Assembly (NCBI GenBank): GCA_977017645.1
Contig: OZ360239.1
Span: 68,076,001-68,140,000, forward strand
Direction of reading: 5' to 3'
Source of the DNA: Torpedo marmorata
Lineage: Eukaryota
DNA: 64,000 nt
Below the pieces are notes generated by a model that saw only the letters and a list, made by a program, of their open reading frames with translations, did not search any database and had not been told where the DNA came from. A program made the translations under genes and the position numbers. Positions 16,238 to 59,462 of the stretch are shown piece by piece. Positions within the stretch are counted from its first letter, which is position 1. Each line of letters starts with the position of its first letter.

Positions 16238-17417
16238 CCGTATTTTCACTCATATAACGCGCACACGCATATACGCGCAAAAAATCATAAATTGTGTAAA
16301 GACATTCTCGTATAGCACGCACACGCATATACTGCGCAGGTGTAGTATTCTAAATTCTGACTGACAAAAGCAATTTGCATTTAATTGGGACATGAGACAA
16401 AACACATTCCATAGTCCCAGTATCTGCCACAGTTAATCTCCCGCTATTTACACCCATTCAATTTCCCCCAGCCGTGTCAATCGCCCATTATATAGATGAT
16501 ATCCTCCTGCAACACATTAACAAGCTTTGGAGAGGAATCAATTAAATAGATCGAAGACAGGCTTCAGAGTTAAGCAGGATTTCATTCTGTCATGATTTTA
16601 AAAGACTTTATTTAAAAGAAACCTTATCTTGTTAAAAATAGTGTGCAATTGAGAAATTTATGGTTTGATTTGATGTAATGAACATGATTAAACTGATGCC
16701 ATAGGGCAGAATCATCCTAATGTTGTCTCAGATCAGAGGCACTTTATATGTTAATCTCCTGCCTCAGGGGACGGGTCTGGGCAATTAACATTGATAAGGT
16801 GCAGTGCCCTAGCCAGAATATCCTGTTTCTCGGAAACCATGGCATTCAGGCCAAAGAGATATTCCCAAGATCAAAATTTTGAATTTTGCCATTTTGTATG
16901 TACCCAATTCCCACGCTCGCTATAAATTGTACGCGTTCTTTCATTGCCGCTATTGCATTCCCACGCTCTCTATAAATTGCCGGTGCGACTTTCCCACACC
17001 CGCTATAAATTGTGACATGAGACAAAACACATTCTTGTCTCATTTACCCGGTACTTGGGACATGAGACAAAACATTTACTTGGGACATGAGACAAAACAC
17101 ATTCCATAGTCCCACTATCGGCCACAGTTAATCTCCCGCGAGTTACACCCATTCAACTCCCCCAAGTAGTGTTAATCGCCCATTATATAGATGATATCCT
17201 CCTGCAACCCATTAACAAGCTTTGGAGAGGAATCAATTAAATAGATCGAGGAAAGGCTTCAGAGTTAAGCAGGATTTTAATTCTGTCATGATTTAAATTG
17301 TGCGCGTTGTTTCAACATGTAAAAATATTCTCGTATAGCGTGCACACGCATTTAACGCACAGGGGGGCTACCTGGTTTGTAATAAACGCATAGCGCGTTA
17401 TATGCGTAAAAATATGG
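16238..17417. mobile_element. Tc2/pogo-like MITE carrying retroviral RT fragments
   Basis: TA|CCGTATTTTCACTCATATAACGCG ... CGCGTTATATGCGTAAAAATATGG|TA terminal inverted repeats. Internal ~215-bp direct duplication (16385-16599 / 17080-17296). Confidence 0.85.
16407..16870 (+). pseudogene. Class III (ERV-L-like) retroviral RT fragments inside the MITE
   Basis: FHSPSICH..ISR.L..IQFPPAVSIAHYIDDILLQ (16407-16512, two 1-nt frameshifts). After a spacer: ALYMLISCLRGRVWAINIDKVQCPSQNILFLG/WHSGQRDIP (~16738-16870). A second HYIDDILLQ copy lies at 17181-17207. Confidence 0.78.
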
Positions 17418-17470
17418 TATATTTTCTCAGGTTTGCAACTTTTACTATTGTAGTTGATTTATTTTGTATA

Positions 17471-17952
17471 CTGTATATATTTTCGTAATAGTCGAGTTTT
17501 GGGGACCAATTTGTCGGGTCAAATTTGGGGGGTCGACTTTAACACGAATACTACTTTTGACTGCAGTAAGTATCTGCATCATTCAAGGCATCGGGAGCTC
17601 GGATGGCCGGGACCGGGTGGTAAGTCCGCGCTCGGGGCATCGGGAGCTCGGATGGGCGGGCGGTCGGGGCTAGGATCCGCAGTCGAGACATCGGGAGCTC
17701 GGACGGGCGAGCAGCCGAGGCGAGGGTTCGGGTTCGCGGTCAGGGCATCGGGAGCTCGGATGGGTGGGAAGCCAAGGCAAGGATCCGCGGTCAGGGCGTG
17801 GGGAGCTCGGATGGGCGGGCGATCGGGGCCAAAAATAAGTGGGGGAAATTGAATCGACTTTTACACAGGATATACGGAAAATATGCGATTTTGGGGCCAA
17901 AAAAGGGGGGGTGACTTTTACACAGGATCAACTATTACACAAGTATATACGG
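17471..17952. mobile_element. Tc2/pogo-like MITE with GC-rich internal tandem array
   Basis: TA|CTGTATATATTTTCGTAATAGTCGA ... TCAACTATTACACAAGTATATACGG inverted ends. Five GGGAGCTCGGA-containing units of ~50 bp at 17587-17830. Confidence 0.75.
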
Positions 17953-17957
17953 TTCCA

Positions 17958-18390
17958 TACACAAAAATGCTGGAGAAACTCAGTAAGTCATGCAGCGTTC
18001 TTTATGTAGCAAAAGATGCATAACCAATGTTTTGGGCCTGAGCCCTCCCTCAAGGTATGAGCTGAAAGCAGCAGGCGCCCAAATAAAATAGTGGGGTGGA
18101 GGGGCAGGAGCACAGGCAAGAGGTCATAGGTGGATATGGGTGGAAGGGCACGAGAAAAAAGCAGAGGTGATAGGGGGAGGGGTTAGCTCTCTGAATGTAG
18201 AAGGTGGGGGGAATACAATAGAAGGTTGGGGAAGTCAAAAGGGGGAGATGGAGGGCTGGGGTGGTCAGAGGGTGGAGTGGCAGGTAGGGGGAGGTGGAGG
18301 GTAGGGGGGTCAGAGGGGAATTGGGGAGGGGGATGAGAGGGTCTGAGGGCTAGGGGGTGGGAAGAAAAGGGTAAACTCAGACAGAGCTCA
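17958..18390 (-). mobile_element. Penelope-like terminal repeat remnant with purine-rich tract
   Basis: ATGCTGGAGAAACTCAG...GGCCTGAGCCCT motif shared with 19458-19714, followed by G/A-rich low-complexity sequence. Confidence 0.55.
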
Positions 18391-18926
18391 GATAACCGGC
18401 AGTTATCATGTACCTGTTTGGCTGCAGCAAGTTTTGGTGCATCGCTACATTGTGCTGATGTATATGACAATAAACTCACATTGAACATTGGCCGATATGG
18501 ACAAGTTAGGCGGGCCAAAGGGCTTGTTTCTGTGTTGTATGACTATGTTTGAACAATATTCAAATGCAATAATCTCAAATGTCCACATACCTAGATGGTT
18601 ACAGTTGATTTAAAGTGCTGATTCATGAGAAGAAAGGAGCTTTAAATGGTTTTGCTGCTACTTTGAAGCTGTATTGAAAACTGTCATTAATTAACTGGAG
18701 AGTGACAAGTTCACAATAAGCTGTACATGTTCACCTTGGCCTCCTTGCTCATCACAGTGATTAAATTATTATCTATTAGGTAAAACCACTCCAGGGAAAA
18801 TAACTAATTTTAATGGCAAATAATTCCTGAGGACCAATTTTTCCATATGCAGCTAACACAAGTTCTGAAAGTTTTTTTAAGATAGATGCTGTGGGATATA
18901 CAATAGGTGCTCAAAGTAAAAATGTA

Positions 18927-19328
18927 CAGGTGCTCCCTACTTACGATGATCCGACTTACAATTTTTCGAAGTTACGATGGTTCGAATTCTTACTTTCAAT
19001 TTTGAATTCCGATCTGTTCCCACACTTGCGATATGTGGTACGCTACTCTCTCGCGATGCTGGGCGATGGCAGCATCGTGCGAGAGTATCGTACAGCATAC
19101 TCCTCGCGATGCTGACTCAACCACGCTCGCAGTCTCAATGCTTCAAACATTCTTCATGCCCAGTGTGCTTTCAGCTGTGTACGTTAATGGTTTTTCAGTG
19201 TGGAATAAAGGTATTCAAAATTTAATTATAAAAAATGGTAGGTGCGGTATTCTTTATCGACTTACGATTTTTTCGACTTACGGTGGGTTTGCCGGAACGT
19301 AACCCCATCGTAAGTTGAGAAGCACATG
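18927..19328. mobile_element. Tigger/pogo-like MITE
   Basis: TA|CAGGTGCTCCCTACTTACGATG ... CATCGTAAGTTGAGAAGCACATG|TA; internal CpG-rich repeats (TCGCGATGCTG). Confidence 0.8.
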
Positions 19329-19344
19329 TAAAGTTAATTCAGGG

Positions 19345-19900
19345 GGCATATCAACATAGTGGTTAAGGTACCAGCAAAGTAACCAGAGTGATCCAGAGGC
19401 ACAGATTTGAACCCTGGTATACCAGCTGAGATATTTAAATTCAAATAATTAAATAAAGTAAAAACACATCAAAATGCTGGAGGAACTCAGTCAGTCTTGC
19501 AGCGTCCATAGGAGATAAAGATATATTGCCGACGTTTCAGGCCTGAGCCCTTCTTCAAGGAAAAATTCTTTGCTTATTCCTTGAAGAAGGGCTCAGGCCC
19601 GAAACGTCAGCAATATATCTTTATTTCCTATGGACGCTGCAAGACCGGCTGAGTTCCTCCAGCATTTTGGTGTGTTTTTACTTCAATCACAGCGTCTGCA
19701 GACTTTCATGTTTCATTCAAATAATTAAATAAAACTGGAATAAAATGTTAATATTCATGCAGACAACTATTCAACTACCAATCAACATAAAAACTTTTTT
19801 GCTTCACTAATGTTCTTCAGGGAAGAAAATTATCATTCTCATTCAGTCTTGCGTATACAGAATATGGTTCCAGGCGCACCAATGTAGTTGACTCTTAACA
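19345..19900 (+). mobile_element. Old SINE remnant interrupted by the Penelope-like hairpin
   Basis: Degenerate tRNA-like head (GTGGTTAAGG..GATTTGAACCC). The body resumes after the 19-bp duplication. Confidence 0.4.
19458..19714. mobile_element. Penelope-like inverted pseudo-LTR hairpin with minimal hammerhead-like motif
   Basis: ~105-bp inverted arms (19458-19562 / 19577-19681) plus a 33-nt tail. 19-bp TSD ATTCAAATAATTAAATAAA (19439-19457, 19715-19733). TTGAAGA-A-GGGC(TCAG)GCCC-GAAACGTC core. Confidence 0.75.
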
Positions 19901-20399
19901 TTCCTCTATTAAATAATTAGGAAAGACCGATCTCAGCAACATCCATCCTTGTTGAATAAATGAAAAACTCACTTTGAACTATTGCTTGAAATTTTACAAT
20001 AAAACGTTCAATTATTTGCAGTAAATTGATCTTAGGTTGTCTGATTTTGTAACCTCGAATTATTGAAATGAGTTGATCAGTATAATTGAGACTATCAGAA
20101 AAATAAATACTGAACATGAAATGATACAGATGTGAACAATCATATACTTAGCATGCTTTTGATCTGTATTTAAGTAACAGCTTCCACGCATCTTCAAAGG
20201 TTCCTCAAAGATTCTAAGAGCTAGATCCAAGCTTAATTACCCACCTTTACTGAATTAGCTGACTTCAGTCAAAATATCAATCGGTTAAGGAGACGACAAC
20301 CAGCTGCCTTTTATATGCAATGTTATTTTCCAGTTCCTGCATGATGAAACAAATCACCTTCAAGCTTGATGAATAAAAAGTGGTGGAATTTCAGTACGG

Positions 20400-20815
20400 T
20401 ATACTCTTCTGGTCGCTGTCATGCAGGAAAGTGCAGTGATGGCACCAGAGAGGGTGCAAAGAAGATTTAAAAGACATTGCCCAAGACTGGAACATTTTTA
20501 ATTCAGAGGAAAGCTGCTGCCACTTTCTTTGGAACAGAGATGTGGAAAATTGTGAGGAGTCAAGACAGAATAAATAAAATGGACCCATTTCCCTTTTATT
20601 TTTTGGGAAGAGCATCGAAATATATAACATTGATCCACAGAAATTGATGGGATTAAAGAAGCTAAAAAAAAAAATCACTCAAATGAAATTAAAAAGTCTA
20701 AATTCGCTGCCTGAAAGGGGGCATTAAAGCAGAAGCTCCACTGATTACATTTAAGATGTACATGGATGCATACATGAAGAACCTACTGGTAAATGGGATA
20801 AGACTGGATAGCTCT
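20400..20815 (+). mobile_element. Degenerate CR1 3' fragment
   Basis: GAGAGGGTGCAAAGAAGATTTA (ERVQRRF) and CR1 3' UTR-like sequence. Confidence 0.5.
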
Positions 20816-20824
20816 ATTAATTCG

Positions 20825-21253
20825 TCAAGTTTATTGTCATCTGATTGCATAAGTACAACCCGACAAAGCAGCGTTCTCCGGTCCTCGGTGCAAAACACGC
20901 AGACACACAACCAGACATAACACACATACAGACAAACAATACATATGCAGGACAAGTATTCCATCTATACAAATAAATAAATAAATATTGTTTTGTACAT
21001 ATGAGAGTCTCAGATGGTTAGTGTGAGCAATTCCTTTGGTCGTTCAGCATTCGCACTGCCTGTGGGAAGAAGCTGTTCCTCAGCCTGGTGGTGCTGGTTC
21101 TGATACTCCTGTATCTCTTCCCCAACGGGAGCAACTGAAAGATACTGTGTGCAGAGTGGAAGGGATCCTCAATGATTTTGCGCGCCCTCTTCAGACAACG
21201 ATCCCGGTAGATAACGTCGATGGGGGAGGGAGACTCCCGTGATCCTCTCTGCC
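20825..21253 (-). mobile_element. Rex1/Babar-like 3' fragment (different subfamily)
   Basis: GGGAAGAAGCTGTT..CCTGTATCTCTTCCC corresponds to the LPSGKRY...SFFP C-terminus; AAGTTTATTGTCAT tail. Confidence 0.65.
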
Positions 21254-22002
21254 AGATGCCAGACAGTGGGGCAATTGGCCTCCTTCTGGGTCACGTCCTC
21301 TATTACTTTAAGGAACTTGCATATTGCATAAATAAGGGATGGAAAACCAGAGAAAATTTTCCATAAACAAGTTAAAACATATTAAAAATGATTACCAAGG
21401 CCTGAACAAAAAAGTGCATTTCAAAGAATAGCAGAAAATGCTAGAAATACTAGGCACTTGCATTTGAAAATGTTGCCACATAATTTCCAATACAATGAGG
21501 TCCCATCACCTCCATATATTCTTCTATTTCTCAGGAAAAAAATGTGCTTGTGCTAAATAAATACTGTCAACTAGAATTGATGGACAGAACAGAACGCTCA
21601 TCCTTGGCTAATGATCAACAATATTTTGAATACCAACAAGAACAAAGGGCCAACAGGCAGGTGCAGGTATGCACATTTCTAATCTAAACATGCAAAATGT
21701 CACATTTTCCTCAAATGATGTTACTCTCTTGAGAAGGTGCCATGAATTGCAGTGTAGCCAAAGGCTATGGTTTGAGAGATCAGCAGACTCAAGAAAGAAA
21801 CCCAGCCACCTAAAAGATATACCCTGTAGCTCTCACCTCATGCAAATTGCCTATTAACAGTCAGAAATAACAGATTTGAGAGTGCATCATTTAAAAGGAA
21901 AAAAAAATCCATAATTTAGAATTAAATTCCAAGTATAATTCAATGTGCACACAAATCAAAATCTTTCTTTCACCAGGTTCATGAGCTTTAGCAAGGGTCA
22001 GT

Positions 22003-22836
22003 AGCCTCTTTCACACTGGCTAACCAGTAAATTGGCTGTTCAGTGTCCCGGTTAAGGAAGCCGTTTTTGCCGTTCACACTGGGCCAATGTTAACCGGGAC
22101 ACTGCATCCTTTCACACTCATCACAAGGCATCCCCGAGGATAGGGGAGTTTATCCTCCACCGGTGACGTCTGAGTGATGCATTGAGCGATGGTGGACCTG
22201 CCCTAAATCCTGTTGTTGTGCCAAGCTGTATAAAGGACCATGGGAAAGTTGTAGGTGCAATAGCAGACAATTTATAAAGACATGGGAACAATAGCGCACA
22301 ATTTATAAAGACCGTGGGAACAATAGCGCACAATTTATAAAGACCATGGGAAAGAGCGATGGCGGACCTGCCCTCCCAGAATTCCGTGCGGCAGAGAAAG
22401 AGCTGTATGCACGGAGCACTCATGGAGGGGTTTCTCTGCCGTACGGAATTCTGGGAGGGCAGGTCCGCCATCGCTTTCTCTCTCTCTCTCTCCCGCTGCA
22501 ACTTTCCCACGGTTCTTTAGAAATTTATAAAGGTTTATGTAGGTCGGCAAAGTTTATACCTTCTTTTTAATCTTTTGTTTCCTTCACGTTCCTGCACTCA
22601 CGCAAAAACGCCATCAAAGCGTTACTACTTTGTCCCTGGATAGTAAGTGTCCCTTTCACACTGGGCTAATCGGCACGCAGGCGTCAGTTGACGCCGGGGA
22701 TGAGAGTAGGGGTCGAGGCCGTCCATCCCTGGCGTGATTTGACGCCGGCGTGCCGATTAAATCGCTTTCACACTGGACCCTTAACCGGTAAATTGGCCGT
22801 CAATTACTAGGACAAGGTGCCAGTGTGAAAGGGGCT
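22003..22836. mobile_element. PIF/Harbinger-like MITE, copy 1
   Basis: AGCCTCTTTCACACTGGC ... GCCAGTGTGAAAGGGGCT TIRs, 3-bp TSD AGT, repeated TTCACACT subterminal motifs, internal palindrome. Confidence 0.85.
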
Positions 22837-22914
22837 AGTATTTCCTCACATTTGTCTTCATCCACTATTTGCAACTCGATCCTCAACGTGAACAAATGTT
22901 ACATATTGTTTCAA

Positions 22915-23025
22915 ACCTACGCAAACATGGGGAGAACAAAGAAATTCCTCACAGACAGCTCCAGATTCAAACCCAGGTCGCTGGCGCTGTAATAGCGTTG
23001 TGCTAACCACTACACTAACCGAGCC
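22915..23025 (-). mobile_element. Partial HE1-like SINE
   Basis: Similar to the head region of 361-610 (CGCTGGCGCTGTAA, GGGGAGAAC). Confidence 0.6.
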
Positions 23026-24105
23026 GAATGTGCTGCAACAAAAATTGCTGCAAAAAAAATCGTAATGGATATAAAACCTTAAATTGTAAGCACCAATTAA
23101 TACCCAAGAAAACTACTGTAATGAACAGGTTCTTTCCTCTTTTGCAGTCACTGGTTTTACCCTGGACATTTGAAAATCTTTCTTAAAAGTTATTCTTTAC
23201 ATGAATTACTTTTGCTTTGTCTCTCAAAGGAAGAAGGTTTGAAAGTAGCTTTTGGATGAAGTATTTTGTTATCACATGCTTTCTTATTTAATTTGAAATT
23301 TAATGTCATTTGAAAAATCTCCCCATTTCAGTCTTATCTTTTCAATTTGGTGGAGACTTGATGGTTGAGTCCCTTGCACTTCCTCAGATCAGGCTTTTGC
23401 AATTATACAAATGTTACTTATGCACATAATGGTCTTCTGCTTCTCCTAATCCTGTATCCTGTTAACTATTTAAAGAAATTGGAATAGAACCTCAATACAC
23501 CTGGAGCAAATCAATGCAACATACAGCAAAAAAATTATGATTAAATATATTCAAGCAATTAATTGTTTACTGATGCTGGCTTTGAATAACCAATGATGGT
23601 TGATGTTGATTAGTATTTTTAAACTTGCTTGCCATTTTTAATTTGGTTGCATTAAAACCTGCTTTCATTACATGAGACTGCCACAGAAAATTACCATAGT
23701 GAACTGTCCTTTTGAAGGGTTACAATTTCCAACCCACAAAAGGGAGATTAATGCTTTTAAGTAGTTCCGTCAATTGCTTGTCAAGCAAAGAAGAAACAAA
23801 AGTGAGTGAAGATTCAATAAATGAAAAACAATCACGACAGTAGAAAAACATTTTCATCTTTGAAACTATCCACCAAGCACAAAATTTTAAACATCCTGAG
23901 AGGATCAACAGCATTGATGCCTTGTAGCTGTTTCCTCTCTGGCAGGGGTCAAATATTTTGTACTGTGATCAGTAGGAATCTCCTTGCACAAAGGACTATA
24001 CCTCTGGTTTTCAAACTTTTTCTTTCCATTCACATACCACCTGAAGTAAGCACAGAGCACCTATGGCATCCAGTGAGCTATCCATTTCAGGACAGAGCAG
24101 TCAAT

Positions 24106-24997
24106 ATCCCTTTTCACACTGGCTAACCAGTAAATTGGCCGTTCAGTGAACCGGTTAAAGAAGCCATTTTTGCCGTTCACACTGGACCACTGTTAACCGG
24201 TTCTCTGCGTCCTTTCACACTCATCACAAGGCATCCCCGGGGATAGGGGAGGCTATTCTCCACCGGTGACGTCTGAGAGAAGCATCGAGCGATGGTGGAC
24301 CTGCCCTAAATCCTGATCAATGTATTATGATCTTGTATTTAAACAAAATTAATCATGCCTAATTATAACATAATTAAGCATTATATACAGCACAGTATGA
24401 GCCCTTCAGCCCCTGTTGTTGTGCCGACCTATATAAACCTTTATAAATGTATAAAGGACCGTGGGATAGTGGTAGCGGCAATAGCGCACAATTTATAAAG
24501 ACTGTGGGAAAGAGCGATGGCGGACCTGCCCTCCCAGAATTTCGTGCGGCAGAGAAAGGGCTGTATGCACGGAGCACTCATGGAGGGGTTTCTCTGCCGC
24601 ACGGAATTCTGGGAGGGCAGGTCCGCCATCGCTCTCTCTCTCTCTCTCTCCCTCCCGCTGCGACTTTCCCACGGTCCTTTAGAAATTTATAAAGGTTTAT
24701 GTAGGTCGGCAAAGTTTATACCTTCTTTTTAATCTTTTGTTTCCTTCACGTTCCTGCACTCACGCAAAAACGTCATCAACGCGTCACTACTTTGTCCCTG
24801 GATAGTAAGTGTCCCTTTCACACTGGGCTAATCGGCACGCAAGCGTCAGATGACCCCGGGGATGAGAGTAGGGGTCTAGGCAGTCCATCCCAGGCATATT
24901 TGATGCCTGCGTGCCAATTCTGGAGCATTCACACTGGACACTTAACCGGTATATTGGCCATTAATTACTAGGACAAGGTGCCAGTGTGAAAGGGGCT
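24106..24997. mobile_element. PIF/Harbinger-like MITE, copy 2
   Basis: Same TIRs and body as 22003-22836, 3-bp TSD AAT; contains ~100 bp absent from copy 1. Confidence 0.85.
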
Positions 24998-25489
24998 AAT
25001 ATTAAACACAAAGTGTTGGAAGAAAGCCCCTCAGTTTTTACTGAATTATATCAAAGGATTACATTCACAAGATTACAAGATACAGGAGCAGAAGTAGGCC
25101 CATTGGCCCATCGACATTGACTAAAGACTAAAACTCTCTTGAATATACATTGGTAAAGTGTTCCACAAATGGCATTCACAATGATAAAGGAATTTGATCA
25201 ATTAGGTATGGATAAAAGGTTACAGTTACATTCTTCTCAAAAAGATTAAGAGTGTTGAGTTCATTAAATTTTCAACAGACATCCAGTAGGTATCACAAAA
25301 TAGAAGGAAATTTATATGGCATGTTTTACATCACTTTCACTAAGCCTTGGAGCAGTATAAACCCAACTACGGTAAGTACCTTTATAACGTGAGCCACAGT
25401 CAAGATGCAATCAGTCATGATTAAACAGGATGACCAACAGGAGCTGAACAGCTCAGTCCTGCCTGCTCCCATATCAACAATTTCCACTT

Positions 25490-26150
25490 AAATAGCAACT
25501 TTAATGTAGAAAAAAGCCCCAAAGCACTTTACCATATTGTCATCAAACAAAACATTATACCAAGCTGGACAAGTACTGTATTAGGAAAGCATACATAAAA
25601 GCAAGAGTCTAAAGCTTTAGGGAGAGGTTCAGCCTTGTTTGTTGGCATCCTAGCAATTATGGAGTGATTAAATTTGAGGATCAGCAACATACCAGATTAG
25701 GTAAAGAAAAGTTAGCTGTGAGGTAAAGTTGAGCATCATCAGCAAACATGGAAACCAAAGCTTTGTTTTCAGATGATGTTACCAAGGGCAGTAAGTTGAT
25801 GAGAAAGAGGGCCAATGCGATATCCTTAGTAGACACCAGTGACAACAGTACAGGCAGATGGAGAAAAACTATTGTTGATGATTCCCTGGCTATAACTGGA
25901 TAGTGTGAATACAGTCAGGCTAGAGCAACACCAATCAGCAACAAAACAATAGAAAGGCATTGGAAGATGGCAGGGTGAACCAGTCACAAACGATACAAAG
26001 CTACAGAAAGGTAACAGAGATTGTTTCAATCTTGTAGGATTGTATTGGTGACCAATCAGAACAGTTTTGCATTGGTAGGTGCAGAAACCTAGCATTCATA
26101 AGATAGCTAACTTGGATATAACATTACCAGCACATCACCAAGTATAAGAT
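25490..26150 (-). mobile_element. Ancient L2-like LINE RT remnant
   Basis: The minus strand reads HMFADDAQLYLT at ~25715-25750, preceded by a decayed GVPQGS.LGP motif at ~25810-25840. Confidence 0.6.
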
Positions 26151-26971
26151 CCCACCAACGGTCATATATAAATAAGGACATTGCTTGAGGATAATGGCAA
26201 CACTGTTAGATTTCACATGAGGAAGGGCAATGGGTTTATCACATTTAATACAGGAGCATCAATCAAAAGTATAATAGGACTAGGAAGTATGAACATTAAA
26301 TGTTGAAAGCACGACTTCAATGCCCATTTATACACAGTGTAATGCAACAGTAATATAAATAACGGTTATCATCTTTTTGGAGTACAGATCATGGAAAAAC
26401 AAATCTTCCTTTTCCTGAAAGAAAGGAATTATTTCAAGACAGTTAATTTTAAAATAACACAAAGAAGACCACATGTATTTGTGCTGACAAATGACCGTCT
26501 CATTAATCCTGGAAATTCACATGAAAAAAAGCCCACAAGTAAATGTGAGCACTCAAATTTTAAATTTCTGGTCACAGAATTGTATTTCTCCTCAAAAATT
26601 CTGTTTCCCCTCAGCACCAAATTAGTGGTGTGTTCATTTTTATTTCTTTAAACATGAACTGGAGAATCTGTTTGAATGAATTTGCATTTCTTTTCTTTAG
26701 TTACAGCAAAGTGATTACAGCAAACAAATCTAGCAATGTAAGAATATTCTGCATATTATTTATTCGTGACATCACTTAGTCCACATGTTGGTGAGTACAA
26801 TTCACAGCTGCTCTGCACAGCTGCAAGTCCACATGTTAATGTTGTCTTGGCATTAATGACCATGCAGAACACCATCCTTTCAAACTTAAAAGTTTAGCTC
26901 TAACAATCAAAAGGCGACAGTGAATACATTTCACACTTAGGAGTTTTGATTTGACATTAAATTTATCTTAC

Positions 26972-27144
26972 CCTCATGCCAAGTACCAAGAAACCAATTT
27001 CTTCCATCAGTGGGTATTTGCTGATCTGTTGTTGTATTTTCTCAGCTGAAGCATCAGGGTCATAACTCTTTTTCCCAATTTTAACATCCATGATGCATGG
27101 TTTGCTGAACCTGCGTGTCACATCTTCCAATTTAAGATACAACT
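26972..27144 (-). CDS. IPMK: IPMK internal coding exon (173 bp; equivalent to mammalian exon 4)
   Basis: Minus-strand translation (E)LYLKLEDVTRRFSKPCIMDVKIGKKSYDPDASAEKIQQQISKYPLMEEIGFLVLGMR contains the inositol-phosphate kinase PxxxDxKxG signature. It is flanked by a TTCAG acceptor and a GTAAG donor. Phase matches the 97-bp exon upstream (G|AG = Glu). Not in the ORF track. Confidence 0.96.
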
Positions 27145-27281
27145 CTGAACTTCAAGGTTAAAGAGCAAACCTGCCTCAGTAGGGTTCATGAAATATCATT
27201 GTGCACTATTTTGATTACTTCATTATTATTTTCAAGACAAAGATATTATCATACATTTCCTTCACAAGACGCATCACAATT

Positions 27282-40915: not shown

Positions 40916-41169
40916 ATGCTAAATGTTTCTTATGTGATAAGGTGGGGCACACCAAGGCAGGATGCCCAAGATAGAACAAAAAGAAAGAGAAAGAGGACCA
41001 CAGGAGGATGAAAACCCCGCCATTGAGGTATAAGAAACGATCTTCCAAGGTTAAACACCTTAGGGGAGATTAAGAAAGTGAGCCAGAGTACCAAAGTGAT
41101 TCCAAATAAGAAGGAACAGTGTCAGTACATTATATTCTCATCTTAAGTAATCGCAAATCGGAAATTCTT

Positions 41170-44010: not shown

Positions 44011-44774
44011 TTCAATTCAGCCCCGGAAGAGCTCTTAGACATTCCAGTTTGGATACAACCAGATTTTGTGGCCCCTTGGAAAGCCCCGGTACCGGTTACA
44101 GAAATACCAGCGGGGAAGGCTGCGCCAGGACAAGAGGCTATCTAAGCATCCGAGAAACAAACCATCGTGCCAAGGAATTTAGCTGCTCCGGAAAGGTCGG
44201 AAACTCGTACCCCTGTTCGGTGTTCTCCACTCCCAAGGAGATCCCAGAGAGACAGACACCCCACAGCACATCTTAAGGATTATGTGCAGTGACTTAAAGA
44301 CATAAGAAGGGGGTGAAACATAATTAGTAATAATAATAATTTCGGTTATCACAAATATATATATATATATATATACTTTAACACGAAATTTAGTTAAGTT
44401 AACTTAGTTAGACTTATTATCTATGTACTAGTATTTTGAGGGGGGGGGAAGTGTTGTGGGAACGCGTGACGTCATCACGCAAGTTACGCGGGTGACGGGA
44501 TTACGTAAGCGACGCGGTAAGGGGCGGTTCAGTTTTGTGTGCACCATTTTGTTGGTGAATAAAGTATGCTAACGGCTCCACAAAGAAGTGTCTAATTTAA
44601 TGTGGAAATGACACTTTCCACAGTGCACCTGTAGAGGTTTGATAGAGAATTTGACAATCTCCTCAGATTCCTAAGTAAGTAGAGGCATTTGTGTGCCTTC
44701 TTCATGGTTGCTCAATGCAACCGAATAACTGGAAATGACGCAAAATACAGGATGCGGGTCAAGAATCTGGTTGG

Positions 44775-45358
44775 TTGTTTTGTGTTTTAGATGTGGACAA
44801 GAGGTTAGTACATTTTTGCATTCTACTTGGCAGTGTCCTAAGGTAAAACCTTTCTGGCTTGATGTGAGTAATTTATTACAACGAATAACAGGGATCAAAT
44901 TCCTGCAGGATCCAATGCTATTTCTGTTAGGCAATATTAAAGGCATTACACCTTAATTGAAATTAAATATGTATCAAATAAAGTTTGTAAAAATTGCCTT
45001 AGCAATATCTAGGAAATGTATTGCTATAACTTGGAAATCAGATACAGACTTAGGAATGGAGAGATGGAATGCGGAAATTCGTAGTTGTATACCACTTGAG
45101 AAAATTACATATAGCTTAAGGAATAGATACCATATATTTTGGAAAATATGGTGCCCATATTTGCAGAGTGTTGGAATGAATGTTTAATCATTTCTCTGGT
45201 AACCTCAATCCTTGGTGAACTCCTTTATTTCATGATAAATATGATTTCTGGAAAAGAACTCTCTCGACAATTTCCGGTCTTTCTTCTTACATCTTGTATC
45301 TTTTTCATTCTTTCTTCCTTCTTTCTTGGGGCTTTCGGAGGAGGGGGTGGGGGGAGTA

Positions 45359-45411
<53 letters not shown>

Positions 45412-45509
45412 CGGTATATATATACCACATGTATAATGGATTAGACTATTTTAAAGATTTGTATTGTAAATTTTATTTGGTGGTTAAAAAAATAATATTT
45501 TTTTTAAAA
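44775..45509 (+). mobile_element. L1 3' fragment (divergent subfamily)
   Basis: CFRCG..H.TW.C and SCIPLEKITY motifs; 14-bp TSD AAGAATCTGGTTGG (44761-44774, 45510-45523). Confidence 0.88.
45361..45409. repeat. (AT)n microsatellite
   Basis: Perfect AT dinucleotide run inside the L1 3' UTR. Confidence 0.97.
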
Positions 45510-45523
45510 AAGAATCTGGTTGG

Positions 45524-46330
45524 GTGGTGCCCGAATAACAATCTTGCTCTCAACATTATCAGAACCAAAGAGCTTGTTTTCATTTTAGGAAGGAGAGGCT
45601 GAGGGACCATGCACCTGTCCGCAGTGATGGAACAGAGGTGGAGAGGGTTAGTACTTTCAAGTTCTTGAGAGTCCACATAATCAGAAGACCTTTCCTCGAG
45701 CCAGAACAACGAGACAACTGTAAAAAAAGCACATCAATTGCCTATACTTTCTAAGAAGGCTGAGGGGGTTTGACATGTTGTTGGAAACTCTTTCAAACTT
45801 CTCCAGATGCACTGTGGAAAGTTGCATCACAGACTGGTTTGGTAATTTGAGTGTCCAGGAGAGCAACGGCTGCAGAAGGTAGCGAATATAGCCAAGACCA
45901 TCACAGGCTCCAACCTCCAATCCACTGAAGACCTCAATGTGAGGTGAAAGAAGGCAGCCAATATCAGTGAGGACCCCCATCACCCTGGTCACAACGTCTT
46001 CACACTGCTACCTTCGTGAAAAATGCACTTCTCGGTTCAATGACATTTCTTTCTTCTAATGGCTATCAGGCTCTTGAACCTCCCCTTACTACAGTACTAA
46101 ACTACTCCGAGACTACAAAAAGGCCTGCCTGCACTATTGCAGTCACTTTTTCTTTCTCTCATTATGGAAACTGTGAATATTTATTACCCAACTGTCTTTT
46201 GTATTTATTATCTCTTTTTAATTTAATGTATACTATTGTAATTGTTTATTTTTGAAAAGTTCCTGTTCAGCTGCAACAAAAATGTTGGTGCACGTGCACT
46301 GTATATAATAATAATCTCATTATCATTGTC
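45524..46330 (+). mobile_element. Old Rex1-like RT C-terminal remnant
   Basis: Decayed NNL.LN..RTKELV, FKFL, DPHHPGH..TLLPS motifs. Confidence 0.65.
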
Positions 46331-47621
46331 ATTTTGTGATTTTCTAGCTGGAAGATGGTCAAAATGAGCTGTAAACTGATATGCTAATGGTGGCTCAGGC
46401 TCCTGGATCCAAAATCCTGATACCACAATCTCCCAGCCACAAATAATTGTCATTTAGCTGCACTTCCTTTAAGAGCTAGAACTGTTGCATTATCTTTAGC
46501 TTTCAAAAGAGATTTTTTGAGCACACACTCCCATTTAAACAAGAAAAATAGAATATAATTTATTTTTGGCGAAAAAAAAGATTAATCAGAAGAAAAGACA
46601 GTGCTTCTCCCTTTACAAAACCATGAAACTTTCAAGGCAATAAAATACAGCCACAATCACAAATCAGTTTTTTACCTATTTGTACACATTTACATTATTT
46701 TGATCAACATCTACCAACAATCTAAGTTCCATTGTATCCATTTAGTTTTCAGTGAAGTTAATCAAAATGGTTTGATATTTTCTTACAGAGAATGAACTGT
46801 AGAAATTTGTGGTCTTTCTCAGAAAAGATTAAATGTTCAAAAATTGTGTTCAGATAAAAATTGAAGTAATTAAATTCTACTCTCAGCCAGGAAGCTCCCT
46901 TTATTAAAAAGGAAAGGAAGGAAGACAAATACTCAGAAACAGGTCACCTTTGTCTCAGTTATAAACGTCTGAACAACAAATTGGAAAGAGTGCTAAAATG
47001 GTGTTGATCATTGTTGAGGTTCAAAGGGACAGAGAACCTATTTGGCTCAATGAGCAACCACAGCAATCTGTATTTTTATTGCACCTGCTGTGTAATAAAG
47101 CAGCCAAACACTGACATAAAGCAAATGAAATTCATCAAAGCATTTAACAAAACCACATTGTATCACGTGATGTGTTTTGGTCAACAATACACATTTTGTT
47201 AAAGTCCTGCATACAGATCATCGATCTACCCCGATAGGTCTGGAATAATGTGAGGTACAGAACAGGAAATTGCAAACGTTGCTTGCATGAATGATGTGCA
47301 ACAGGATTTCCAAAGTTAATTAATTAAATTGCCAGATAACACGAAGGAAAGCCTTATCACATGGTTTACTCAGAATCCTACAATGATTTTCAGTTTATCC
47401 CAACAGTCCTGGATCTGTGGAGAACTATACATTTCATCTTTATTTTAAGCCATTTCTTCCATGTCCTTTTTTAAGGATTTGAATTCTTTAATCCAAATTT
47501 ATACTTAAAACTATTAAAACTGTTAGAGATTCTCTTTTGACATCCTTACAATTGTACAAGTAAACCTTTTAACTTTTGTTCCTAAATTAAACTTGTTCCT
47601 TTGATCAAGAGAAAGTAGATT

Positions 47622-47682
47622 TTGCTGCCGCAAAACACCGAATTTCATGACTTGTTCACGACAATAAATTCTGATTCCGATT
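47622..47682 (+). mobile_element. Rex1 3'-terminal stub (~60 bp)
   Basis: GCTGCCGCAAAACACCGAATTTCATGACTTGTTCACGACAATAAATTCTGATT, almost identical to the 3' end of the young Rex1 copies. Confidence 0.8.
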
Positions 47683-48197
47683 TTTCCTTTTCAAAGTATT
47701 CAAACACTTCACAATTTCAAACAATTTTTTTCTTTCATTTTTCTGTTCTTGTCAAGACCATATTTCACTAGCCTGCTCTTCAAGCATTTGGCATCTTTGT
47801 GGATTTCTTCCAAAATATCTCCATTAATTTGACATCCTTCCTAAAAAGGGTTCTCAAACCTGGAACCTTATCAATGTTCCTTTAGGTTTCAAACACCTTT
47901 TGTGCTCTGCACCCCTATTTATAAACCCAAAGACTGTGTGTACATTAAAAAATAAAAATAAACCCCAACTTTAGTTGCCAGTTTTTTAGATTTATTGATC
48001 TGATGCCTATCCAGAGTAAAAAATAAAAATTGACTGCTGCTAAAATCTCAGGAACCTGCACAGCTTTGACTGCTGCTAAAGAGGATGAGATTCTTCTCAT
48101 CCTTCCAAAGCATATCAGAATTCACAGCAAATTTCATGCAATAACTGAACAACCTACTATCACATCTAAATTAGTTAGGCTAGTGTTTATTAACAGG

Positions 48198-48665
48198 TTA
48201 GAACATAGAACAACTACAGCACACAGTACAGGTCCTTCTGCCCTCGATGTTGTGCCGACTCATATATTTTCTTCCATCCACATCTAAGAGTCTCTTAAAT
48301 GCCCCTAATGTTTCAGCCTCCACCACCATCTCTGGCAAGGCATTCCAGGTACCCACAACTCTCTGTGTAAAAAACTTACCCCTGATCTCTCCCCTAAACT
48401 TTCCTTCCTTCATTGTACAGATGTCCTCTGGTGTTTGCTACACCCGCCCTGAAAAAAGGTGCTCGTTGTCTACCTTATCCATGCCTCTCAAAATCTTGTA
48501 GAGCTCTATTAAGTCTCCTCTCATCCTTCTACGCTCCAAAGAGAAAAGTCCCAGCTCTGCTAACCTTGCCTCATAAGACTTATTTTCCAATCCAGGCAAC
48601 ATCCTGGTAAATCTCTTCTGCACCCTCTCCATAGCTTCAACATCCTTCCTATGATGAGGAGACCA
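48198..48665 (-). mobile_element. CR1 (HER1-like) LINE 3' fragment
   Basis: ERVQKRFTRMLPGLE..SYE.RL..LGLFSLERRR.RGDLIE and FFTQRVV..WNALP; (TTCTATG)-type tail. Confidence 0.9.
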
Positions 48666-48832
48666 TGAGGTTACTCTGAAGTCTGCTTCCGATTAATTTG
48701 CATTACATACAGACTTCATTACAAGAAATTTCATAATTTAAAATGACATGAGAGAAAAAAAATACACCAAGTGTATCGGACCTGTAAGGATCAACAAGAG
48801 TCTTTTCAATATTTCCAAAATGTAGGGCAAAT

Positions 48833-50570
48833 ATCAGAATCAGAATCAGAATTTATTGTCATGAACAAATCATGAAATTCGGTGATTTGCAGCAGCATCA
48901 TAGTGCAATTAACATTCATATTAACCATCTTACGACATTACTATAAAAATTATAAACAATAGTGCACGAAAAGTAAGGCAGTGTCTTTGGTTCATTGATT
49001 ATTCAGGAATCTGATGGCAGCGGGGAAGAAGCTGTCCTTGTGCTGTTGAGTGCTCGTCTTTAGGCTCCTGTACCTTTTTCCCGATGGAAGCAGAGTGAAG
49101 AGGGCATGGCCTGGGTGGTGGGGGTCTTTGAGGATAGAGGCTGCTTTTTTAAGACACCGCCTCATGTAGATGTCCTCCATGGAGTGAAGTTTGGTGCCTG
49201 TGATGTCACAGGCCGAGTTAACAACCTTCTCGAGTTTACTCTTGTCCTGGGAGTTGGCGCCTCCATACCAGGCAGTGATGCAACCAGCCAGAATGCTCTC
49301 CACGGTACACCTGTAGAAGTTTACGAGAGTCTTCGGTGACATACCGAATCTCCGCAAACACCTCACAAAGTATAGCCGCTGACGAGCCTTCTTTGTGATT
49401 GCATCCACGTGGATGCTCCAGGACAGATCCTCGGAGATGTTGACACCCAGGAATTTGAAGTTCTTGACCCTCTCCACGACTGAGCCCTCGATGAGGACTG
49501 GGTCGTGTTCCCCTGACTTCCTCCTGAAGTCCACAATCATCTCCTTGGTTTTGCTGACGTTGAGCTCAAGGTTGTTGCCATTACACCATTCAACGAGCTG
49601 ATCTATCTCCCTCCTGTACGCTTCCTCATTGCCGTTTGTGATTCTGCCGACAACTGTGGTGTCACCGGCAAACTTGTAGATGGCATTGGAATTGTGCGTG
49701 GCCACACAGTCATGAGTGTATAACGAGTAGAGCAGTGGACTAAGCACGCATCCTTGGGGTGCGCCTGTGTTGATAATCAGTGAGGAGGAGACGTTGTTTC
49801 CAATTCGTACTGACTGTGGTCTTCCGATGAGAAAGTCAAGGATCCAGTTGCAGAGGTGGGTACAGAGGCCTAGGGTTTGTAGCTTCTTGACCAGCACTGA
49901 GGGAATAATGGTATTGAAGGCCGAGCTGTAGTCGATGAAGAGCAACCGTATGTATGAATTGCTGTTTTCGAGGTGGTCCAGAGCTGAGTGGAGAGCCAGC
50001 GATATTGCATCTGCTGTGGAGCGATTGTGGCGATAGGCGAATTGCAGTGGGTCCAGATCTTTGCTTAGGTATGTGTTAATTCTAGCCATGACCAGCCTCT
50101 CAAAGCATTTCATCACAGTAGAAGTTAGTGCTACTGTGCGGTAGTCGTTGAGGCAGCTCACACTACTCTTCTTGGGTACCGGGATGATTGATGCCCTTTT
50201 GAAGCAGGTGGGAACCTCTGACTGCCGCAATGAGAGGTTGAAAATGTCCGTGAACACTCCGGCTAGTTGGTTGGCGCAGATTTTCAATACCCTGCCAGGT
50301 ACGCCGTCAGGGCCTGACGCCTTGCGAGGGTTCACCCTCTTGAATGATGTTCTGACGTCGCCCTCAGAGACAGATATCACAGGGTCCTCAGCCTTTTCAG
50401 GGATTCTAGCAGGCACTGTTTTATTCTTCTTCTCAAAGCGGGCATAGAAGGTGTTCAGCTCATCGGGTAGTGAAGCATCACAGCCGTCTATAGTGTTCGC
50501 CCTCGCTTTGTAGGCTGTAATGGCCTGCACTCCCTGCCATAGCTGGCATGTATCTGTCGTGTATCTGTCT
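48833..50570 (-). mobile_element. Rex1/Babar LINE, 5'-truncated, uninterrupted RT reading frame
   Basis: ORF 48992-50644 is stop-free through the RT and C-terminus, but the catalytic FADD reads FAGD; (TTCTGA)3 tail. Confidence 0.95.
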
Positions 50571-51819
50571 CTGTCACAAAGTCTGTTGACAGTGATGACA
50601 AGTTGATGACATGTATTCGTGTCATATCGCACAAGCCCATCCAAGTTTTGCTTCTAAATTAACTTATACCACTACGTATTGTTGAGTGTGCATATAGCAA
50701 TGTTCAGAATTGCAAAGGACTTCAATTTACAGAATGGCTTCATAACACGACACATTACGCTCCGTACAAGCAATGTACACCGTGAGTTTTCTACTATCTG
50801 AGGGTGTTGAAAAGTTTTGCCATTAAGGATTCCATGCAACCATAATGCAAGCAGCCCAGAGTTGTACCTCTTGTTTAGGTGCATTCTGGGTCATTGACTT
50901 TGTGAAAGTGCACATACCACCACAGTGAAATGCAATTACAAATCTTATTGCATCAAATGGCACCACTAATGCAATCAGTATCACATCCGGCCTTTGCCTC
51001 CAAAGGTAGTATTTGGAAAAAAAAAAGATTTTTTGTGATTTCTTTCTTATCTACCAGGTAAAAAGCTCAGGCTTATAGCAATGAATACCAAAGATCAAAG
51101 GAACAGAAAGAACATAGGGAGGCAAATGAAGATTACCCTGACAAATTCTGGGACAGGCCTTGGGTTCTGGAATAGGCTACAGGCTTTAGGTGATGTGACT
51201 ACTGGGACAGAGCAGGGGAAAGGGAAGGAAGGACATTTGGGCTTTGGGAAGCACTGAAGTCAAGAGGCATCAAGAGAAAAAAGGATGACAAAATGGGATG
51301 AGAAGGAGATCGGTAAAGCAGGTTGGTGGAGGAGCAGCGAGGGCAAGAATCCAAGAGAATGAGATAGGAGAAAGAGTTAGCTGCTGCAGATCAACCATCC
51401 ATGGTTTTGACAGCAATGATGTCCTTAATCTACCAGCAGACAGATTAAAGGAAAAGGCCAGGGTGGAGGACTGAGGGACAGGGGCTGATAAAAAGAAATA
51501 AGTGTGCGCGTGCGTGCGCGTGCATGATAGGACTTGGAATACCTTGCCATTGGACTAACTACTCTCTGACAAAACCACAGGATGACCAGTCTGCCACATC
51601 TATCCCATGTTAAAGGAAATCACACAAAGTCAGCTACCAATAGAAGCAAGTCATCTTCAATCCAAGAGTATTACCCAAAAAGAACTACACATATATTGTA
51701 AATTATGAGATATCATTTGGGGAAAGTAGACAAGAGTTCAAATAGAAAACAAAAATTATGTACTGGTGTCGCTACATTAGGTACACGAGGCAAAGGAAGA
51801 AAGGCTGGAAAGTGGTAAA

Positions 51820-52145
51820 ATCAGGTGGCAGAGCAGCTCAACTAGTAAAGCTGCTGACTCATAGCACCAGAAATACAGGTTCAATCCTGAGCTTGGGGCT
51901 CTCTGTGTGGAATTTGCATGACTATGTGGGTTTTCTCTTGGTGTAGCTCCAGGTTCCTCCCTCATCACAAAGACATAAAGACTGGGAGGTTAATTGGCCA
52001 TTGTAAATTGTCCTGGTGTGTAGGTGAAATTGAGAGAATAAACAAATGGGATTAACATAGGTTTAGTATAAATGGGTGGTTGATGGTCAGCATGGGATCA
52101 ATGGACCAAAGGATCAGTTTCCGTGCTGTATCTCTCTATCACTCT
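51820..52145 (+). mobile_element. Older V-SINE-like element
   Basis: GGTGGCAGAGCAGCTCA head, GGTTCAATCC B box, TGTGTGGAATTTGCATG..GTGGGTTTTCTC core, CR1-like tail CCGTGCTGTATCTCT. Confidence 0.65.
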
Positions 52146-52612
52146 TTAACTACCTAGTTAAATTTCCATTTGTTATACAAATGAAGGGAGCTGCATGGAG
52201 CCACAGGAAAGCATAGGCCAATGCTGGAGCAATTCAGTAGTCACATATAAGTTAATTTTTAGAAAATGGATGAACTAAATTAGCAGGAATGTGGGAGCCT
52301 GTAAGCAGTTGCAGAAGGCAAAGGCAAAATTAGATGCCAAAAGTTGGGAGTTAGCAAAGTATGGAAAGAAGAGGAACAATTTTAGAAAATTGAGGAAACA
52401 AAGTTAGATGGAAAAATAAACCAGATTTAGCAGCGTATTACAGTATACGCTATAGTACAAGGAATCAAGGAAATAAAGGCTTTGAAATGTAAGCAGAAAA
52501 TGACTTGGTGGGGCATCTGTAATTTCATTTAAAGGGGGGGTAGAGATGCAGCTCAAATGACAGCTTTGGTTTGTAGTGTTCAGATGAGAGTAAAATGGGA
52601 CTGCAAATCTTC

Positions 52613-54108
52613 CAGAATCAGAATTTATTGTCAAGAACAAGTCATGAAATTTGGTGTTTTGCGGCAGCATCATAGTGCAATTAACATTCATATTAACCAT
52701 CTTACGACATTACTATACAAAATTATAAACAATAGTGCACGAAAAGTAAGGCAGTGTCTTTGGTTCATTGATTATTCATGAATCTGATGGCAGCGGGGAA
52801 GAAGCTGTCCTTGTGCCGTTGAGTGCTCGTCTTTAGGCTCCTGTACCTTTTTCCCGATGGAAGCAGAGTGAAGAGGGCATGGCCTGGGTGGTGGGGGTCT
52901 TTGAGGATAGAGGCTGCTTTTTTAAGACACCGACTCATGTAGATGTCCTCGATGGAGTGAAGTTTGGTGCCTGTGATGTCACAGGCCGAGTTAACAACCC
53001 TCTGGAGTTTACTCTTGTCCTGGGAGTTGACGCCTCCATACCAGGCAGTGATGCAACCAGCCAGAATGCTCTCCACGGTACACCTGTAGAAGTTTACGAG
53101 AGTCTTCGGTGACATACCGAATCTCCGCAAACACCTCACAAAGTATAGCCGCTGACGAGCCTTCTTTGTGATTGCATCAACGTGGATGCTCCAGGACAGA
53201 TCCTCGGAGATGTTGACACCCAGGAATTTGAAGTTCTTGACCCTCTCCACTACTGAGCCCTCGATGAGGACTGGGTCGTGTTCCCCTGACTTCCTCCTGA
53301 AGTCCACAATCATCTCCTTGGTTTTGCTGACGTTGAGCTCAAGGTTGTTGTCATTACACCATTCAACGAGTTGATCTATCTCCCTCATTGCCGTTTGTGA
53401 TTCTGCCGACAACTGTGGTGTCATCGGCAAACTTGTAGATAGCATTGGAATTGTGCCTGGCCACACAGTCATGGGTGTATAACGAGTAGAGCAGTGGACT
53501 AAGCACGCATCCTTGGGGTGCGCCTGTGTTGATAATCAGTGAGGAGGAGACGTTGTTTCCAATTCGTACTGACTGTGGTCTTCCGATGAGAAAGTCAAGG
53601 ATCCAGTTGCAGAGGGGGGTACAGAGGCCCAGAGTTTATAGCTTCTTGACCAGCACTGAGGGAATAATGGTATTGAAGGCCGAGCTGTAGTTGATGAAGA
53701 GCAGCCGTATGTATGAATTGCTGTTTTCGAGGTGGTCCAGAGCTGAGTGGAGAGCCAGCGATATTGCATCTGCTGTGGAGCGATTGTGACGATAGGCGAA
53801 TTGCAGTGGGTCCAGATCTTTGCTTAGGTATGTGTTAATTCTGGCCATGACCAGCCTCTCAAAGCATTTCATCACAGTAGAAGTTAGTGCTACTGGGCGG
53901 TAGTCGTTGAGGCAGCCCACACTACTCTTCTTGGGTACCGGGATGATTGATGCCCTTTTGAAGCAGGTGGGAACCTCTGACTGCTGCAATGAGAGGTTGA
54001 AAATGTCCGTGAACACTCCGGCTAGTTGGTTGGCGCAGATTTTCAGTACCCTGCCAGGTACGCCATCAGGGCCTGATGCCTTGCGAGGGTTCACCCTCTT
54101 GAATGATG
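52613..54108 (-). mobile_element. Rex1/Babar LINE, 5'-truncated
   Basis: Near-identical to 48833-50570, with a 14-bp deletion near 53386 and one premature stop. Confidence 0.94.
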
Positions 54109-54511
54109 TCCAAATCCCTTAGCAGGCTAAGCAAACCAACCAGTAGCCTCTACCAATTCTGCGTTGGTTAAGAAATCAATTACAACTGGGGAGATCAACA
54201 AATGAAATCATGTGGATTGAGCAGAAGAAAACAGAATGGGTAATCAGGTTGTTAGAAGTGTACTTTCAACCCGCTTAACAGTCAGATTGAGATAGCAAAC
54301 AGGCAGATTTCTCTCACGCTACGCACATGTTTCATCAAACACCCCCCTCCCCCACCAGAGTCAGCGTGTGCCGATCTCTCCTTGGCCTCTTAGCCATCTC
54401 AGCACCCACAGAACTGAAGTGGAAGCAAATTATTCTCAACTTAAGGGACTGCTCGAGAATGAAGAAAAATATACTGGCAGATTTACCGGGAAATGCAATT
54501 GAACAGATATA

Positions 54512-55248
54512 CCATATATTTCGGCGTATAAGACGACCCTTGAAGCACCCAAAAAACCCGCCAAAAACAGGGGTCGACTTATAGGCCAGATACAAAAACG
54601 TGACCATAAAATTCTGGCCGGAAAAGCGGACCAGTCCCGACCACCTCCCCACCAACACCGGTCCCGACACCTCCCCACCGCCACCTGTCCCAACACCTCC
54701 CCACTGCCGCCATAACCCACCCAGACATTTTACAATTGTAGAGCCTGAGGTCCCTGCTCCTGCCCGGGAGCCCGAGGTCCCCACTCCTGCCTGGGAACCG
54801 GTGCCCCCCAAAGCCGAAACGTAGCTGTGGTTCCTGCACCGAGCACACTTTGGCAGCGAGGCGACTTCTTCGATGCGGACGGCACCGCACCCGATGTTGA
54901 GAATGGAGTCGCCGTCTCCGGCTGCAGCCGATGCTGAAGACTTGGACCCAGCACCGTTTGGCATCTTCCCGGCCAGAAGCAAAGTTTTTTTTTACTGTTA
55001 TTGTAATCACTTGCTTGCTTAATTTAAAGATTTGTTACTTGGCGACTGGGGTGTTGTAACAAAGTTTGGGTTGTTGCTGGGAGGCCCGGACACCAGTCTC
55101 TGGCACGTTCCTTGCAACCGCTCTGAGGCGTCGAGCAGAAAATTGGCGGGTCGTCTTATACGCCCGATATATGATAAAACCATGAAATTCAGGCTGAAAA
55201 TGGGGACCCGTCTTATCTGAAGGTCGTCTTATACGTGGAAATATACGG
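54512..55248. mobile_element. Tc2/pogo-like MITE carrying a DMRT1-like exon fragment
   Basis: TA|CCATATATTTCGGCGTATAAGACGACC ... GGTCGTCTTATACGTGGAAATATACGG|TA; subterminal GTCGTCTTATA/GTCGACTTATA repeats; GC-rich interior. Confidence 0.88.
54795..54964 (-). pseudogene. Captured fragment of a DMRT1-like gene (start codon to first half of the DM domain)
   Basis: The minus strand gives MPNGAGSKSS..., then KKSPR / LPKCARCRNHSYVSAL / GHRF in three adjacent frames. Together these reproduce the DMRT1 motif KKSPRLPKCARCRNHGY(A/V)SPLKGHKRF with small deletions. Confidence 0.85.
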
Positions 55249-59460: not shown

Positions 59461-59462
59461 GC

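Follow-up and report, generated by a model that had tools for sequence, protein, structure and literature searches.

Three elements flanked by TA and bounded by terminal inverted repeats (TIRs) lie in the 64,000-nt window analysed here (Torpedo marmorata, assembly GCA_977017645.1, contig OZ360239.1, positions 68,076,001 to 68,140,000), and one of them, E3 (Table 1), carries the front of the DMRT1 gene. As judged from the letters of the DNA, E3 appears to be a non-autonomous pogo/Passer transposon in which the transposase has been replaced by the DMRT1 5′ untranslated region (5′UTR), the start codon, a partial DM domain and repeats of intron 1. The DMRT1 piece is present in at least 830 copies in the 6.22-Gb assembly that was searched, where the window contig is C52, and parts of it occur in two hAT elements and in a fourth carrier, which its terminal sequence suggests to be Tigger-like. 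We put at roughly 0.8 the probability that the DMRT1 front was captured once, by template switching, and was then passed to the hAT and Tigger-like elements via nested insertion and deletion.

A search of the assembly for DM domains returned 3,769 candidates, with 87 of the 150 scored reaching E < 0.001, and ten apparent true DM-domain genes were present among the fetched loci (L031–L034, L037, L038, L043, L104, L119 and L120), including two three-gene clusters on contigs C2 and C22 and a lone gene on C79. The source of the E3 cargo is L043 (C2:246.43 Mb), the first gene in a DMRT1-3-2-like cluster, which matched human DMRT1 in the PDB at 1.6e-29 and whose best named matches were mostly ray DMRT1 proteins at 88–94% identity, followed by sharks. 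These matches place the host among the cartilaginous fishes, near the rays. The DMRT1-like exon noticed in E3 by a preliminary description of this stretch is therefore real and traceable to its gene, and the proposal that the cargo was a GC-rich first exon holds for E3. The alignment of E3 with L043 runs from ∼190 bp upstream of the ATG into the DM domain and resumes within the GC-rich intron-1 repeat, and the inclusion of this intronic repeat shows that DNA, not mRNA, was captured. The 27-nt repeat unit of E3 is DMRT1 intron 1 itself, and a 26-nt array had no match in the parent transposon or in the fetched DMRT1 region (∼1 kb upstream to 11 kb downstream; 9.9 kb intron); both arrays are found to the same side of the exon piece, not around it as the 22–24-bp flanking repeats first described. 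In L043, intron 1 starts with a GC-rich tandem array of ∼30-nt units, ∼700 bp long (1690–2376); of the whole cargo, it is this repeat that persists in every one of the four carriers, expanding anew there.

A single origin of the cargo followed by amplification is indicated by the scars that its copies share. Among 29 aligned E3-type copies (one long copy was left out), the left junction and a 44-bp deletion were common to all 29 and the ATG was kept in 28, with a mean divergence of 6.9% from the gene and 3.9% from the column majority. Longer forms (L101–L103 and L105) kept most of the DM zinc module and lacked the following helix. By exact-pattern counting, in which all counts are lower bounds and controls yielded 0, a 20-mer of the DMRT1 5′UTR had 831 matches including the gene, and the junction of E3 itself had 127. 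In each of the four sequencing runs compared, short contigs together spanned the whole of E3. Two runs presumed to be RNA were among the data compared, but such contigs do not reveal transcription.

Both ends of E3 match a Passer parent, and of 30 position-ordered members with the E3 subterminal motif, 19 run into a transposase and 11 into DMRT1. The parental transposase has the domains BrkDBD, HTH_Tnp_Tc5 and DDE_1; in a sister Passer subfamily, with 85% identity across 1,412 nt, the triad is DD35D (spacing of 35 computed), a spacing also counted by eye in L153. Since these domains and DD35D match the Passer features given in the available text of Gao et al. (2020, PMC7386202), the parent was assigned to Passer by this likeness of features. 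Of 30 fetched loci of the sister subfamily, 17 have frames of at least 440 amino acids, which differ pairwise by 1.45% on average, and the terminal repeat of this subfamily departs from that of E3 at 1 of 26 bases. An autonomous transposase with matching TIRs, which the preliminary description had suggested looking for, was thus found for E3, and its view of a gene-capturing non-autonomous pogo (Tc2-like) element is borne out for this element. At the left junction the Passer parent and the DMRT1 gene agree at 6 of 7 bases, as read by eye. Loci L268–L297 represent a very young Passer subfamily, with a 456-codon open frame in most of the 150 best BrkDBD matches and some fetched copies identical over 1.27 kb; it is possibly active still and a candidate tool transposase.

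The same DMRT1 piece was found in other superfamilies. The first 30 matches of the 5′UTR 20-mer comprised 17 (16 elements) with Passer ends of the old or young type and 13 in a second element type, which its short TIRs and 8-bp target duplications mark as a probable hAT; duplications were present in 7 of 7 complete copies (five at 8/8 and two at 7/8). At least 11 of the 13 hAT-borne copies had the 44-bp deletion, as placed by breaks in BLAST alignments, and the filler after the intron repeat was likewise shared with the Passer copies; the 44-bp piece was retained, with at most one mismatch, only by the gene and two Passer-borne copies. The right part of this first hAT had 439 matches, and among 30 sampled, 13 had the DMRT1 exon, four were empty parents, 11 lay in a second hAT host (10 complete copies, duplications matching at 7–8 of 8) and two in the Tigger-like element. 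Where the cargo would sit, 40 nt of native sequence remain in the empty parents, which have neither of the junction scars shared with Passer, and microhomology of 3–4 nt was present on each side of the hAT–cargo junctions. The second hAT host and the Tigger-like element contain the intron repeat plus the right part of the first hAT. From these nested scars we infer the order gene, Passer, first hAT, and then second hAT host and Tigger-like element. Contigs under three organism labels (X1, X2 and X8), from three studies, bridge the hAT–DMRT1 junction, and the best of them may stem from the source of the window itself. When Passer ends were sought within the 40-nt hAT segment, one match was obtained (control 0), L381, in which a complete Passer–DMRT1 element with TA on both sides sits inside an empty hAT, within the very segment that is elsewhere replaced by the cargo.

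A second DMRT gene was captured independently of the DMRT1 piece. The family of the second hAT host separately carries ∼1 kb of the DMRTA-type gene L034 (G000:C2:256.48 Mb), 10 Mb from DMRT1, which we take to be DMRTA1 by synteny. This cargo comprises exon 1, in which the DM domain is complete, and continues through the splice donor into ∼600 bp of intron 1, and because the splice donor is read through it is a DNA-level duplicate and not a retrocopy. There were 45 exact matches besides the gene (at least 45 copies); the left TIR was found in 13 of 13 examined copies, and 8-bp duplications in all five with both ends in view. The copies fetched were L035, L036, L039–L042, L044–L050, L106–L113, L116 and L117, several with an open DM frame, and one subfamily adds a second GC-rich tandem-repeat cargo. 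A truncated, 76%-identical copy (L114 and L115) is repeated many times on a few small contigs (C81, C82, C1006, C1109 and C2302), as would be seen if it were part of a long, tandemly repeated unit. On the reverse strand of L048, a CpG-rich promoter-like stretch (∼1300–1450) ahead of the DMRTA cargo is unmatched at the DMRTA locus and could be a further captured piece. In assembly-wide searches for control domains, Forkhead (60 matches of 82 candidates), HMG (60 of 115), PAX (16 of 150 scored; 498 candidates) and homeodomain (388 candidates) were not amplified above gene-family levels; as DM was chosen after being seen, its enrichment is a lead only.

The three elements of the window do not form one capture system: each belongs to a separate high-copy family with ends of its own. 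Scanning of the window detected them as the sole TIR pairs of such type, at the places given by the preliminary description, with TIRs of 27 nt (E1, 89% identity), 26 nt (E2, 81%) and 29 nt (E3, 90%). Each is a dispersed family (40 of 40 scored candidates matched per search), with exact-pattern counts of 1,077 for the E1 end, 654 for the E2 ends, where both ends can match, and 319 for the E3 subterminal motif. The shared termini described earlier come down to the first few bases, since BLAST cross-matches among E1, E2 and E3 were no longer than 15–18 nt, a length expected by chance. Of the 25 copies fetched for E1 and the 25 for E2, 18 and 22 were complete, and TA was present at both flanks in 14 and 12 of these, respectively; for E3 the figure was 26 of 30. 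This supports the claimed TA flanks for most copies of each family, but the E2 copy of the window has TA only at its left flank. In the loci fetched for E1, E3-type ends were found in 3 of 94 and E2 ends in none, and neither of the other ends was found in the 84 loci fetched for E2. From the lower-bound counts, only 0.03–0.06 windows genome-wide would be expected to hold all three elements together; either this window is rare or the true counts are higher, and their co-occurrence is no basis for a rate. Nor are two cargoes in 64 kb a measure of capture rate, because each element is one copy out of a distinct, abundant family. The fetched loci, 1.24 Mb in all and enriched in members of the E1, E2 and E3 families, contained no other family with ends of this type.

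The interiors of E1 and E2 are each fixed within their family. A reverse transcriptase (RT)-like stretch was present in 27 of 30 sampled E1 copies, broken and over more than one frame. With a natural E1 copy, seven of eight PDB matches were retroviral polymerases at weak E values of 0.032–1.4; the window copy gave one unrelated PDB match, a homolog search gave no hit, Pfam scans of stop-free stretches and of all three forward frames gave no RT family, and a 39-amino-acid natural copy had no match among 1.84 billion proteins. As the queries were short, these blank searches are weak evidence, and the retroviral RT label proposed for E1, favoured by the polymerase matches and by nothing in the Pfam or protein searches, is likely but unproven. 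No donor provirus was found for E1: 21 of 21 spacing matches were E1 copies, and the 150 scored protein matches had open frames of at most 182 amino acids. The GC-rich array of ∼50 bp reported in E2 is real (51 nt × 4.8) and occurred in 28 of 30 sampled copies, the other two being clipped by the end-finding step; no donor was found, with all 30 examined matches (32 in total) lying inside E2 ends, and so the array may have arisen within the element. No E1 or E2 transposase was found in 30 + 30 sampled copies, and the top BrkDBD matches had E3-type ends.

These observations can be assembled into a stepwise account. Repair of a broken Passer element would have switched to DMRT1, so that the transposase gene was replaced by the 5′UTR, exon 1 and the intron-1 repeats. 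The element then spread, its copies showing TA duplications and stepwise internal losses, some of them with ends of the younger Passer subfamily. Derived cargo replaces the 40-nt native segment in the first hAT, probably because a Passer–DMRT1 element jumped into this segment and both Passer ends were deleted at the 3–4 nt microhomologies. The intron repeat and the right part of the first hAT also lie within the second hAT host and the Tigger-like element. The cargo most likely rides passively, and E1 and E2 are independent families of the same general end type whose interiors probably arose in a similar way. Several points weigh against this account. The same junctions are expected from a single template switch between two transposons; searches by spacing, protein and array matches found no donor for E1 or E2; the junction microhomologies were read by eye; and the relay samples are the first 30 matches on the largest contigs and not a random set. 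Since the inner element of L381 has ends of the young type and has retained less of DMRT1 than the cargo in the hAT, L381 is not the ancestor of that cargo, and as a single copy it demonstrates only that such nesting occurs.

The closest competitor is a one-step passage of the cargo from Passer to hAT, by a template switch during gap repair via short microhomologies and without a nested intermediate. It accords with the microhomology at both junctions and the clean replacement of the 40-nt segment, and breakpoint microhomology is typical of Pack-TIRs in the available text of Tan et al. (2021, PMC8277862), but the complete nested element L381 sits in exactly the replaced segment and the second hAT host retains the whole right terminus of the first hAT inside it, as nesting predicts; we regard the one-step route as possible and distinctly less probable. 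That hAT and Passer each took DMRT1 from the gene is highly improbable: although both superfamilies form Pack-TIRs in animals (PMC8277862, available text), the 44-bp deletion and the right-junction filler are shared by the carriers and absent from the gene and the empty hAT, and these shared derived scars already contradict two captures. Nested insertion followed by deletion remains the preferred route between carriers.

We think it unlikely that a single promiscuous ‘Pack-Tc2’ system frequently captures unrelated cargo and shuffles exons genome-wide, as the preliminary description had proposed from three related MITEs (miniature inverted-repeat transposable elements) with unrelated cargoes. 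All three TA-flanked families have similar terminal bases and non-transposase interiors, and a second DMRT gene was captured independently, but there is no cross-match between the families, the E1 and E2 interiors are each fixed, the second DMRT capture was made by a hAT, and the four control domains stand at gene-family levels versus 3,769 DM candidates. Frequent capture does not follow from the two cargoes, each being one old event copied hundreds of times, and a shuffling of exons into host genes is likewise unsupported. Equally unlikely is retention of the DMRT1 piece for a benefit, whether to the carrier (germline transcription or an unmethylated state) or to a host using the copies to regulate DMRT1. 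Such a benefit would fit the retention of the piece over at least four carrier types and several organisms, the higher copy numbers that Helitrons of bats attain when they hold 5′ portions of genes (Thomas et al., 2014, PMC4224331, available text) and the amplification of DM twice but of the four other domains not at all. Set against it are a coding part decaying via nested deletions and frameshifts, a capture whose start, ∼190 bp upstream of the ATG, excludes the more distal upstream region, and the latest carriers, which retain only the intron repeat. Slightly more doubtful again is a transposon relay network of rays biased to DMRT genes, in which DMRT1 and DMRTA 5′ pieces would be kept via pogo/hAT hopping and be movable by the young intact Passer transposase, and about a thousand copies would be sources of truncated DM-domain proteins or of gonadal sense/antisense RNA, tuning DMRT1 and offering raw material for new sex-determining genes.

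Table 1. Features of the three TA-flanked elements (positions in the window)
Feature	Position	Strand	Basis
E1, separate TA-flanked non-autonomous family, patchwork interior	16238..17417	.	TIRs, copies, 1,077 exact terminal matches
E1 direct repeat copy 1, 205 nt, broken RT-like stretch over more than one frame	16378..16582	+	
Second copy of the E1 direct repeat, 93% identity with the first	17073..17277	+	
E2, separate TA-flanked non-autonomous family	17471..17952	.	TIRs, copies, 654 exact terminal matches
E2 GC-rich tandem array, 51 nt × 4.8, length varying from copy to copy	17583..17829	.	
E3, DMRT1-carrying non-autonomous element, apparently pogo/Passer (Pack-TIR), 737 bp, TA duplication on both sides	54512..55248	-	
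E3 Passer left end, TIR and subterminal repeats; the end preceding the transposase frame in parent copies	55150..55248	-	
E3 captured DMRT1 5′UTR and start of exon 1, ATG at 54964-54962	54801..55149	-	
E3 exon piece, family-wide 44-bp deletion at 54894/54895, frameshift, only the first part of the DM domain	within 54801..55149	-	
E3 pieces of the DMRT1 intron 1 GC-rich tandem repeat, 27-nt period	54744..54811	-	
E3 26-nt GC-rich array, absent from the parent transposon and the fetched DMRT1 region	54630..54704	.	
E3 Passer right end, subterminal repeat and TIR	54512..54623	-	

Other repeats were observed in the window. A further small element at 59200–59700, presumably Tigger-like by its motif, has a GC-rich array of 23 nt × 6.9 at 59456–59611. 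The segments 1541–1840 and 14209–14508, 12.7 kb apart, were scored as two copies of a single repeat with 100% identity along 300 nt, an identity that suggests a very recent insertion or duplication. An element at 22100–22900 contains a hairpin and a 32-nt × 3 array, and shares a 263-nt repeat with 24633–24895.

The capture is real, and is unusual in its copy number and in the hand-over between carrier superfamilies, the more unusual trait and one that the preliminary description had missed. Multicopy vertebrate Pack-TIRs have been thought rare and of low copy number, and here one cargo exceeds 800 copies; captured host sequence can outlive its first carrier by moving to other superfamilies. 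Because the donor gene, empty parents, graded deletions and the nested state all occur in one assembly, disputed routes of capture become directly testable, and a mobilisation assay becomes feasible with the young sister transposase, whose frames are intact and whose terminal repeat is so close to that of E3. In these fishes the many pseudo-exons, hundreds from DMRT1 and dozens from DMRTA, will interfere with read mapping, polymerase chain reaction (PCR) and the annotation of sex-determination genes.

In the literature searched, which did not extend to supplements or repeat databases, we found no mention of this DMRT1 case or of any cargo handed from one superfamily to another, and a library entry for these families may exist. 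The comparisons that follow refer to the available text of each paper. For Passer, Gao et al. (PMC7386202) do not there list cartilaginous fish among the hosts or mention gene capture, unlike the case here. In vespertilionid bats, Helitrons number 12,382 copies with 54 genes (PMC4224331) and resemble E3 as high-copy vertebrate elements with pieces of 5′UTR, first exon and first intron, but they are rolling-circle elements without TIRs and hold many cargoes rather than one passed between superfamilies. Plant Pack-MULEs and Pack-CACTAs (Catoni et al., 2018, PMC6379663) are, like E3, non-autonomous TIR elements that move gene fragments, and form composites via neighbouring insertions and loss of one end; the model given for them concerns closely spaced insertions of the same family in plants and not nesting into another superfamily. 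The nearest likeness is to animal Pack-TIRs, of which a survey of 100 genomes counted 370, only four of them multicopy, with a 5′UTR captured by a frog hAT in three transposed copies as an example (PMC8277862; the word ‘shark’ is absent from its main text as available). E3 has TIR-element sequence on both sides, a parental gene, dispersed target duplications and a DNA-level duplicate, the features by which Pack-TIRs are recognised, and shares with those of the survey the TIR ends around such a duplicate, the identifiable parent, hAT and Tc-mariner carriers, microhomology and the GC-rich cargo of the multicopy cases; it differs from them in that one cargo is here present in at least 830 copies and in four carrier types.

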